Positions 16,001-19,000 of a DNA stretch of 57,073 nt are shown in pieces. Made by a program: the position numbers. Positions within the stretch are counted from its first letter, which is position 1, and each line of letters begins with the position of its first letter. Source of the DNA: a virus (lineage: Duplodnaviria; Heunggongvirae; Uroviricota; Caudoviricetes); the IMG/VR virus record IMGVR_UViG_2923307698_000004; one strand, given 5' to 3'.

Positions 16001-19000
16001 TTTTCCAGTTTTTTATTGACGGTCTGCGTGATTTCATTGCTGACATTCGTAATGGACGTCCTGATTTCAGCCAGGTCCGGCGCAAGCTGACCGTTATCAA
16101 TCTGCGTCCACAGCTCCTGGGCCAGATGTGTTTTCCCGATTTCTCCTTTGAAAAAATCCAGGTAACCTTCCGCATCATCGCTCGCCCGACCGACAGCCTC
16201 CACGAATGCCGATTTGCCAACAGTATTCACACTGCGGATATAAAAATAATAATCATGGCCCGGTTTGATATTGATACTGGCAGCTATCCAGTACAGCGCC
16301 GAGCCAAGATAGCGGGCTGCGGTTTCAACCTGCCTGATATCCGCAATCCGCTTTTCCGAGAACCAGAACTCAAACTGTACCGTCGGGTCATAAACGGCAA
16401 GATGCGGCGTGGCGGTTATCTGAAAATAGCCCGGCGTCAGCTCAATCCGCGACGGTGCTGCCGGTGCGGCAATCCGGAAGGTGGTGGTGGCAGGTTCACC
16501 CTGCTGGCCATAGCTGTTTATCGCCCGCACCGTCAGGGTGTATTCCCCGGGCGGCAGACCACTGAAACGATGCTCTGTATCCGCAGTGATGGCGGTGGTC
16601 ACCAGACGGCTGTCTTCTCCGCTTCCGTTGGTCAGGCGCAGACTGAAGCGCACACCCTTCACCACCCGCGGCGTGTCCCATTTCGCCTGTGCCAGATACT
16701 GACCGTCAGCCGCGCTCACCTCCACCGTCAGGTGCTGCACAGCCGGCGGGATGACGCTGTTCAGCGAACCGGACAGTGGCTCAAAGCTGGCCCCGTTATC
16801 CACAATGGCTTCTTTTTCCGGTACGTGCTGCACCGCCGTGATGGCAAAGGTGCCGTCCGTGTTTTCCCGGATGGAGACACAGCGGAACAGGCGACGACGC
16901 AGTGACGGCAGGGAGAGTCCCCATACACCGTATGTCTCTACACCATCAGGCAGGGTGCTGACCTGTATCCGGTCCGGCGCGGGGTGTGCGGTGATGTCCA
17001 CACTCACCGGCTTACCGCTGCCGTTAATCAGGTTCACCGTGGCGGCACCTGTCTCCGGCAGGGTCACCTCACGGTCCAGTGTCAGGGTGCGGCTGGCGGC
17101 ATCGATGGACAGGATACGTCCGCCGGTCATGGTCCCGGCATAGTCGTTATCACAGATTTCAATAATGTCACCGGGTGTGTGACGCAGCCCCTGTGACCCG
17201 AGCGTGAAATCCACCGTCTGCGTTTCCAGCAGTCCGGTCTTTATCACCCACAGCCCGGCACGGTGGGCCTGACCGCGACTGGTGCAACCGAACGCGTCCA
17301 TCTTCAGCAGGTTGCGCCCGTAGCGCAGTATGGCTTCCGGGTCTTCCACCAGTTCCGTGGAGGTCTGCCAGCCGTTCTGCGGGTCGGTGTAATTCACCTC
17401 CACCGCCGTGTGGCGGTCCTTCAGGGCGCTGAAGCTGTAGCGAAACCCCACGCCGTTATCATCCACCACCACATCGCAGTTGGTGTACGGCCACACCACA
17501 TCCGACGGGCGGTCCTGAACGAACGTCAGCGTCTGACCGTTCCATACCGGCATACAGCGCATCGCAGAGCAGAAATCACTGAGAACGTCCCACGCCTTAC
17601 GCTGTTGTGCCAGGTACGCATTAAAGGTCATCCGCGGCTCGGTCCCCCCGAAACCATCCGGGACCGTCTGGTCGCAGTACTGCGCAATGGCATACAGCGC
17701 CCATTTGTCCACGTCTGCCGCCCCCAGACGTTTTCCCATGCCGTAGCGCGGGTGAGTCAGCATGTCCCACAGGCACCAGGCCGGGTTGTTGCTGTATGCC
17801 GGTTTCAGGCTGCCGTCCCAGATGCCGCTGTACGTGCGTTTTTCCGGGTCATAGTTTGACGGTACCTGGATGATGCGACCGCGGATATGGTAGTTCACCG
17901 TCATCTGCTGACCGCCAAACTGCTCCGCATCCACCTGCAGCCCCACAATCGCCGTGTTCGGGTAGCACTGTTTCACATCGATGATTTCGGTGTATGACGA
18001 CCAGAGCGTCTTATTCTGCAGCTGGTCCGGGGTGCTGTCCGCTGTCTCCCGGACCATCCGGATGTTAAAAGGACGGGGAGGCAGATTACCCAGAATCACC
18101 GACGCCAGAAACTGCGAGGTGGTCTTGCCGTTAATGGTGACATCCTTTTCCGTCACCCAGTTACCGTTACGCTGTAACTGAATCAGCAGGCGGACGGATG
18201 CCGGGTTACGGTCACCCTTTGAGGTGGTCTCCACCAGTGACTGCACCCCGAAGGTAACCCGCAGGCGGTCAATGTTCGCGGACGTAATGGTGCGCGTCAC
18301 CGGTTTTGCCTTCGTCACTTCCACGCCCAGTCCGGTTTCAGCTCCGGAGGACTCAAAGCCTTCCGGTGGTGTCTGCTCCTGCTCCCCGGCACGCCAGACC
18401 GCGGTCACACCGTGTATCACGGGATTGCCGTCCGTGTCCGTCAGTGGGGTTTTGTTCACCAGAATACTCTGCAGTCCCTTCACCGGACCTTCTATCGGTC
18501 CCTCACCAATCGCATCAATCACACTCATCATCTGCGTGGATTTGAGATTATCCTTCGCCTCACGAGGCGTGTGTGCCTTACCGCCACCTTTTCCCATACA
18601 GCCTTCCCCTGAATAAATTAACCGCCACTTGCCATTCCGTACAGAAGTCGGATATCCTTCGCCCGAAAAGCATGAAACACATTTCTGCCATGCTAAAGAG
18701 AAACCCCGGTATCAGCAGATACCGGGGTTTTCTTTCATGCCCACCGATAATCCTGTTGGTTAAAACCGGTAATGGCATAAAAATTCTGAATATCTTCACA
18801 TTTTCACACACTGACTGTGGCGCTTATAATTTCGCTGCGTTAGTGTTTTTTTGCCCGAGTAACAAAAACAACTCCTTAACATTGATCTTCATTTGTCTGT
18901 CCCCGCAGCTCCGCGATCACTGCGGGATTTTTTTATGTTTTATCCCTGTCGCCCGACAACCACGACCGTTCCGCCCCCGCCTTCATCACGGGTGCTGATG

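Follow-up and report, generated by a model that had tools for sequence, protein, structure and literature searches.

What is carried by the insert that separates tail genes I and J in the prophage IMGVR_UViG_2923307698_000004 (Caudoviricetes)? The window, i.e. the whole stretch of 57,073 nucleotides analysed here, has its late genes on the minus strand, and a first-pass annotation had pointed out a 342-bp insert between I and J with a promoter-terminator unit on the opposite strand, interpreted as a candidate small RNA (sRNA) moron. Listing of the open reading frames (ORFs) placed the gap at 18598-18939, exactly 342 bp as described. With high confidence, its right half (18777-18934 on the plus strand) is identified as the gene for the known sRNA PasB in its PasB-2 allele, an Hfq-dependent, trans-acting, base-pairing prophage RNA. 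The sRNA between I and J is real but already known: PasB was published in 2021, PasB-2 appears in a 2026 preprint and relatives in enterohaemorrhagic E. coli (EHEC) were detected in 2014.

PasB (E2348CN_0006) was found in enteropathogenic E. coli (EPEC) O127:H6 E2348/69 by RNA-seq, ligation and sequencing of interacting RNAs (RIL-seq) and Northern blotting, and is listed in Table S6 of that study at NC_011601.1 1466343..1466261 (-) as an 83-nt entry of prophage PP6 (Pearl Mizrahi et al. 2021, PMC8550237). In E2348/69 these coordinates fall on the strand opposite the two genes that flank them, the tail assembly gene (I) and gpJ. The PasB Northern probe AATCCCGCAGTGATCGCGGAGCT, taken as its reverse complement, is found without mismatch at window positions 18907-18929. 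When window positions 18775-18939 were aligned with the PP6 I-J gap, a single base was different. The PasB body is identical to that of E2348/69 in 82 of 83 nt, and the sole difference, A18878 instead of C, corresponds to published position 27. A position-27 variant, PasB-2, has been described, and PasB has been placed within the phage structural operon (Zhu, Shabalina and Storz, 2026 preprint); A18878 is the polymorphism by which this preprint defines PasB-2, and the copy in the window is the more common of the alleles. Because of the exact probe match, the near-identical aligned gap and the same I-J position, it is concluded that the feature is pasB. The plus-strand sRNA of roughly 100 nt proposed at first pass thus corresponds to the published RNA of ~83 nt on Northern blots of E2348/69, and is not new. 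In 845 records of the collection of complete E. coli genomes, the best match to the 98-nt version of the window reaches ≥99% identity. The following features make up the right half of the gap:

18777..18803, plus strand: upstream block ATAAAAATTCTGAATATCTTCACATTT, from the cassette alignment; the profile match begins at 18777
18803..18830, plus strand: pasB promoter (-35 TTCACA, 16-nt spacer, -10 TATAAT), from a consensus scan
18837..18934, plus strand: predicted primary PasB transcript of ~98 nt, starting at the conserved GCGTTA, 7 nt past the -10 box
18852-18934, plus strand: equivalent of the published 83-nt PasB, by coordinate transfer from NC_011601.1 1466343..1466261 (-) through the alignment
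18846..18872, plus strand: 5' part of the RNA, read from the sequence, with a U-run (18846-18852), a variable GC-rich segment and an A-rich tract
18861-18872, plus strand: (A-R-N)4 tract AACAAAAACAAC, a candidate Hfq distal-face site
18902..18934, plus strand: terminator and probable Hfq-binding 3' end, from consensus scan and folding

The promoter, which had already been noted as near-consensus, scored 11/12 against the sigma-70 consensus and has the same sequence in E2348/69. The consensus scan gave three promoter-like sites in the region versus 0.8 ± 0.9 in shuffles. As for the hairpin and T-run seen at first pass, the terminator stem CCCGCAG/CTGCGGG (18902-18908/18920-18926) folded with an 11-nt loop and is followed by an A and seven U (18928-18934), ending 5 nt short of the I stop codon. 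Chance does not account for the promoter-terminator unit. The upstream block is common to nearly all cassettes of the family described below, including tandem copies outside the search pattern, and is possibly an UP element or a regulator site. Judged from the -10 box, which ends at 18830, transcription would start near 18837. Two options are predicted for the 5' end: it may be primary at ~18837, or the RNA may be processed to 18852. By the same reasoning on the start, a length of 88-91 nt was predicted for the EHEC relative EcOnc22, compared to ~85 nt observed. A 5' hairpin between the U-run and the A-tract was seen in the single-sequence minimum free energy structure but not in the family consensus, and was dismissed as unsupported.

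In E2348/69 the stability of PasB is Hfq-dependent, with an RNA-seq level that falls by log2 -6.8 in delta-hfq; its level is higher under the non-activating growth condition, and it takes part in 37 RIL-seq interactions, always as RNA2 of the chimera (PMC8550237). The identical promoter, body and terminator suggest that expression, a size of ~83 nt and Hfq dependence also apply to the allele in the window.

Is this cassette an isolated case? EcOnc22, EcOnc23 and EcOnc24 were listed in prophages Sp15, Sp14 and Sp11 of EHEC O157:H7 Sakai, and EcOnc22, of ~85 nt, was Hfq-bound in cross-linking and analysis of cDNA (CRAC) and less stable in delta-hfq (Tree et al. 2014, PMC4104026). For EcOnc22, the Hfq peak maps to the Sp15 I-J gap (L126:992-1231) on the strand opposing the tail genes, with some uncertainty in the exact offset between genome versions. 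The window cassette is 74% identical to this VT1-Sakai (Sp15) gap. Because the probe for EcOnc22/23/24 can be aligned with the cassette of the Sp15 gap that is homologous to PasB, with 23 consecutive matches over GTTAATCTTCATCGTTCTCTCCC, PasB and EcOnc22/23/24 are assigned, by sequence, to one family in one slot. In the literature searched, this link between PasB and EcOnc22 was not found; the EPEC supplementary table notes no EcOnc homologue and the 2026 preprint does not mention EcOnc.

To collect family members, IMG/VR was scanned with a pattern anchored on TCTTCACATTT and CTGCGGGATTTTTTT, resulting in more than 120 prophage loci with 39 distinct cores and 54 distinct cassettes. As the pattern fixed two cassette blocks, their invariance is partly a matter of ascertainment; the tandem neighbour cassettes, which were not selected by the pattern, keep the same blocks. 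The family order starts with the near-invariant upstream block ATAAAAnTTCTGAAnnTCTTCACATTT, the -10 box, GCGTTA, the U-run and a variable segment, and continues with the A-rich ARN tract, AAYUCC, a variable tetranucleotide, UUAAUCUUC and the terminator. In the aligned -10 box, positions 2 and 6 are A and T, respectively, in 47 of the 54 cassettes, and exact TATAAT occurs in 21. GCGTTA, probably the transcription start, was identified in 44/54 cassettes, 7-10 nt downstream of the -10 box, and ARN runs of at least three triplets in 44/54. Across 36 distinct type-A family RNAs the terminator is the sole consensus helix and the body is unpaired. Covariation in the terminator stem is uninformative since the stem is invariant, partly because the search pattern fixed its 3' arm.

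A profile built from these cassettes gave a single match in the window with nhmmer, at 18777-18934 (E = 1e-39), and Rfam 15 gave no matching family in the gap. A weak partial profile match at 38322-38403 (+) (E = 0.2, 7 bits), ~1 kb from the STnc100 locus, is probably due to chance. By these searches, roughly one in five to one in four complete E. coli genomes carries a member of the family. Two contigs labelled Parendozoicomonas haliclonae (L123, NZ_FWPT01000051.1, 460 bp) and Streptomyces flavalbus (L125, NZ_JBHTEB010000006.1, 3.4 kb) also carry an E. coli-type I-J junction with a PasB cassette, most likely as a result of assembly contamination.

Two, three or four cassettes in tandem are present in the I-J gap of some other prophages (430, 721 and ~920 bp, respectively):

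L036:310-1229, minus strand: four-cassette array; further four-cassette arrays in L084, L087, L089 and L118
L083:8163-8883: three-cassette array
L003:9809-10239: two-cassette array; further two-cassette arrays in L039 and L055

These arrays include a second cassette type with a different terminator, ending in CTCCCGTCAATATCC...ACGGGAGATTTTTT. The four-cassette array could be identified in 67 complete E. coli genomes at ≥80% coverage, and is therefore not an assembly artefact. No description of tandem PasB-family arrays was found in the literature searched. No tandem pasB copies were reported by Zhu, Shabalina and Storz (2026 preprint), presumably as the neighbour cassettes are too divergent for the BLAST settings used there.

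With which part of the RNA could PasB recognize its targets? A conservation-based proposal placed the seed just upstream of the PasB terminator (Zhu, Shabalina and Storz, 2026 preprint). Here, windows from NC_011601 were taken for 15 of ~31 RIL-seq partners, picked by chimera count and narrow read ranges. Prediction of duplexes over whole windows gave inflated, long-loop duplexes, and was replaced by k-mer and contiguous-match tests. In these 15 windows, 7-mers complementary to PasB positions 35-62 (18871-18898) were counted 35 times, versus 11.2 ± 3.9 in dinucleotide shuffles (0/200 reached this count). The 5' 34 nt of PasB showed no enrichment in the same windows, with 13 matches versus 13.5 expected. 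The seed region has the following parts:

18871..18898, plus strand: single-stranded seed ACTCCTTAACATTGATCTTCATTTGTCT, from the complementarity enrichment, unpaired in the family consensus
18872-18885, plus strand: sub-seed 1, CUCCUU(C/A)ACAUUGA, which contains A18878
18884-18895, plus strand: sub-seed 2, GAUCUUCAUUUG, which overlaps the family-conserved motif (U)UAAUCUUC (UUGAUCUUC in the window)

Contiguous matches to sub-seed 1 were observed in napF (16 nt), yijD (11 nt) and caiF (10 nt), and matches of 10-12 nt each to sub-seed 2 in tolC, rpoS, smg/yrdD and trmJ. Five of the seven longest matches (napF, yijD, caiF, tolC and trmJ) lie at -17 to +12 of the annotated start codon, which is the classic layout when an Hfq sRNA controls translation. 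The C that forms a pair with G in the napF, yijD and caiF sites is A18878 in the window, and the predicted seed duplexes with these three are ~6 kcal/mol weaker, whereas those with tolC, rpoS, smg/yrdD, trmJ and raiA are unchanged. Mimicry of the anti-Shine-Dalgarno sequence by CUCCUUA was also considered and fits yijD and in part the gene after E2348C_2648, but most matches use the downstream segment UCUUCAUUUG opposite start-codon regions; this idea is retained only as part of sub-seed 1.

Several points weigh against the identification of a functional, trans-acting PasB in the window. The start predicted here lies 15 nt upstream of the published 5' end at 18852, which was estimated from read coverage and the rough size on the Northern blot. 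No curated model confirms PasB, since the Rfam 15 search had no family matching the I-J gap. With z -0.8 to -1.3, the whole-RNA fold is not more stable than those of shuffles; this is in line with an unstructured seed, yet provides no structural support. In the EPEC study no common target motif was found for PasB and no function was reported (PMC8550237). The seed test covers 15 of ~31 partners and shows enrichment of complementarity, which is distinct from regulation, and the expression, size, Hfq dependence and partner list of PasB come from E2348/69 only.

How does pasB sit in the tail operon, and could the gap encode something else? The flanking genes, as given by the ORF listing, are:

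15124..18597, minus strand: tail gene J
18940..19620, minus strand: tail gene I

In lambda the gap between I (end at 15444) and J (start at 15505) is 60 bp, so that the first-pass view of I and J abutting in lambda holds approximately. With 342 bp versus 60 bp in lambda and its own promoter and terminator, the insert has the attributes of a phage moron. The absence of a convincing ORF was confirmed: ORFs called mechanically over the gap are 44-141 aa long, none of those overlapping it matches Pfam or PHROG, and the PasB RNA contains no AUG. By BLAST, the full 342 bp are present in 1445 of 5426 complete E. coli genomes and annotated in none, and RefSeq leaves the I-J gap region unannotated in the genomes listed. 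In phage records just the right half (18774-18939) recurs, with 74-98% identity, in the I-J gap of many Shiga toxin (Stx) phages including VT1-Sakai.

The remaining left half consists of a different module:

18598..18776, strand not assigned: left module of 179 bp, from the alignment and the catalogue of left modules
18701..18730, strand not assigned: 13-bp hairpin AAACCCCGGTATC-AGCA-GATACCGGGGTTT (stem 18701-18713/18718-18730), from folding

This module is present in 1446/5426 complete E. coli genomes (~27%), never annotated, and in 1442 records the best match is at least 99% identical. It is nearly invariant, is combined with different PasB alleles, and is absent from E2348/69 and Sakai, in which a different module of 92-102 nt is found instead. 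A second hairpin with T-rich runs on both strands had been seen at first pass, and its 13-bp stem indeed folds with a z of about -6 on each strand: -28.7 kcal/mol on the plus strand (z -6.6) and -32.2 kcal/mol on the minus strand (z -6.0), each followed by T-rich runs. On the minus strand, i.e. that of the late operon, it is located ~100 nt upstream of the J start. The hairpin is predicted to be a bidirectional intrinsic terminator. In the unrelated left module of E2348/69 an I-to-J terminator was called by the scan shortly before J (L002:1931-1964 (+)). That two unrelated left modules both have an I-to-J terminator before J (at 18695-18736 in the window) suggests selection for termination at this place. 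The left-module terminator may be passed only by Q-modified polymerase, which would gate J in lysogens. No description of a terminator module before J was found in the literature searched.

Other interpretations of the left module were less successful. A degenerate third PasB-type cassette was suggested by eye from TTGCCA-18-TATCCT and GAATAAA, but the cassette profile had no match in the left module (nhmmer). A match to Rfam SSRC34_2 on the minus strand (18696-18778) reached 27 bits versus a gathering threshold of 48 (E = 0.07), is driven by the hairpin and was ascribed to chance. A plus-strand RNA from ~18665 to 18736 is at most a possibility. One protein is annotated in phage ASU11 over this stretch:

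18578-18778, minus strand: ASU11_gp9c, 66-aa hypothetical protein overlapping the J start

It looks like an over-call, having no Shine-Dalgarno sequence and no family match and spanning the terminator hairpin. In different prophages (L016, L089, L013, L117 and L118) a 7-nt unit, CTGATGT, is repeated in tandem, with one to four copies between hairpin and J start; this repeat of variable number belongs to short left modules and lies just upstream of the J ribosome-binding site.

Taken together, pasB is a moron complete in itself, with an intrinsic terminator and a near-consensus sigma-70 promoter of its own. Because it has its own promoter and lies between I and J, pointing against the late operon, PasB would be made in the lysogen independently of late transcription. 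Hfq is most likely bound via the U-tail and the ARN tract. The seed at 18871-18898 would then pair with host and accessory-genome mRNAs, often at the Shine-Dalgarno sequence or start codon (tolC, napF, caiF, yijD and trmJ), and this pairing would modulate translation or stability of the targets. The bidirectional terminator of the left half is modelled as separating the pasB promoter from J. In a wider and tentative reading, to which we give somewhat less than an even chance, the I-J insert would consist of two stacked modules in a specialised cassette slot, namely swappable sRNA cassettes and a J-gating terminator module. One to four PasB/EcOnc22 cassettes would share the upstream block and the 3' seed (UUAAUCUUC) and differ in the 5' seed, so that prophages would swap and stack target specificities, and the A18878 allele would be one such retargeting. 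The terminator before J would gate J and the downstream genes in lysogens and be read through by Q-modified polymerase, and the left module might give a second RNA.

Does PasB act in trans, or does its position point to another role? If it were mainly a cis-antisense RNA to the late transcript, I-J pairing or polymerase collision would tune J or trigger RNase III processing, in the manner of lambda OOP or P22 sar on their targets. In favour of this, the whole gene runs opposite to the I-J spacer of the late operon, late transcripts necessarily hold a perfect anti-PasB sequence, and the position is shared by 54 or more distinct variants of the cassette as well as by the multi-cassette arrays. 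However, there is no overlap with the I coding region, as the terminator stops 5 nt short of the I stop codon, nor with the J ribosome-binding site, which is ~240 nt away. Furthermore, many trans partners with seed complementarity are found by RIL-seq, and PasB is plentiful in lysogens that have not been induced and in which the late genes are silent. A principal role in cis is thus considered unlikely, and could be an extra function of PasB rather than an alternative.

A transcriptional insulator, also raised at first pass, would make the hairpins the purpose of the insert, stopping transcription in both directions, and the sRNA a by-product without targets. For such a role a near-consensus promoter, a conserved unstructured segment of 28 nt and Hfq binding would be superfluous, and in RIL-seq PasB ranks among the better connected sRNAs of the accessory genome. 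The seed motif is moreover conserved across divergent cassettes while the flanks vary. The hairpin at 18701-18730 has T-runs on both sides and the unrelated left module of E2348/69 also terminates I-to-J transcription just before J, but as an account of the whole insert the insulator is very improbable; it is predicted to fit only the left hairpin module. A small protein encoded in the gap, such as the product of the 66-aa ASU11 ORF (18578-18778, minus strand), or a decayed coding remnant is hardly to be expected. ASU11_gp9c is annotated over this stretch and mechanical ORFs of 44-141 aa overlap the gap, but there is no Pfam or PHROG match and no Shine-Dalgarno sequence before the ATG, and the ORF crosses the terminator hairpin and overlaps the J start. 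Its few variants are one synonymous and three non-synonymous changes (codons by inspection) plus a frame-breaking 5-nt deletion, and RefSeq has no annotation there in the genomes listed. The reading of the right half as the gene for trans-acting PasB is therefore preferred.

Within the accessory genome of EPEC, PasB counts among the sRNAs with higher abundance and more interaction partners. Since the family is unannotated in RefSeq and no Rfam family matches this region, scans of raw sequence keep rediscovering it, and recognising PasB prevents a false claim of novelty. The increments over published work are the assignment of PasB and EcOnc22-24 to one family, the seed at 18871-18898 with its allele difference, the terminator module and the arrays of up to four cassettes. 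The findings on family, seed and arrays are leads on how prophages rewire host post-transcriptional networks, and extend a known kind of element.

Elsewhere in the window, Rfam matches above gathering thresholds were obtained for isrC (12850-12972, minus strand), STnc100 (39436-39608, minus strand), sok (45219-45368, minus strand) and DicF (52486-52537, plus strand). In addition, an ALIL frameshift pseudoknot at 42261-42377 (-) suggests an insertion sequence, and tRNAs were found at 40383-40456 and 40550-40622 (-). STnc100 has been reported to be related to PasD (Zhu, Shabalina and Storz, 2026 preprint). The prophage of the window is dense in regulatory RNAs.

How does the locus compare with known systems? 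PasB of E2348/69 and the window share the promoter, the terminator, the antisense position between I and J and the exact probe sequence, whereas the J-side module is ~93 nt with another hairpin in E2348/69 and 179 nt with a bidirectional terminator here. EcOnc22/23/24 occupy the same I-J slot in the same orientation, with the upstream block, -10 box, GCGTTA, U-run, A-rich tract, (A)ACUCC, UUAAUCUUC and the CCCGCAG...CTGCGGGAU7 terminator in common. Their cassettes are ~74-77% identical to that of the window and the 5' part of the seed differs, hence their targets probably differ from those of PasB.

AgvB and AsxR resemble PasB in being short, Hfq-binding morons of lambdoid prophages in pathogenic E. 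coli. They lie, however, 3' of a moron coding sequence after PR', near stx and the lysis genes, and not between tail genes (Tree et al. 2014, PMC4104026). Their length is 51-60 nt, they have another conserved 3' domain of ~42 nt and they sponge GcvB or FnrS. Neither AgvB (RF02702) nor AsxR (RF02703) had an Rfam match in the gap or elsewhere in the window, and no GcvB or FnrS chimeras were found among the PasB RIL-seq rows examined. An AgvB-like anti-GcvB sponge had been considered from a presumed I-J site and the resemblance of the CA-rich AACAAAAACAAC to a GcvB R1 target, and was rejected given the location of AgvB after PR', the missing Rfam match and the lack of GcvB chimeras in these rows.

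Class II Hfq-dependent sRNAs, such as ChiX and MgrR, combine an ARN motif with a U-tail. PasB is similar in sequence, with its U7 tail and the (A-R-N)4 tract AACAAAAACAAC, and shows strong Hfq dependence (log2 -6.8), which suggests that its Hfq binding may be of the class II type. Finally, OOP of lambda and sar of P22 overlap a coding end or a ribosome-binding site and act in cis. Like these, PasB is a short RNA made in opposition to a phage operon, from a site that is intergenic or 3'; unlike these, it overlaps no coding end or ribosome-binding site and has many partners in trans.

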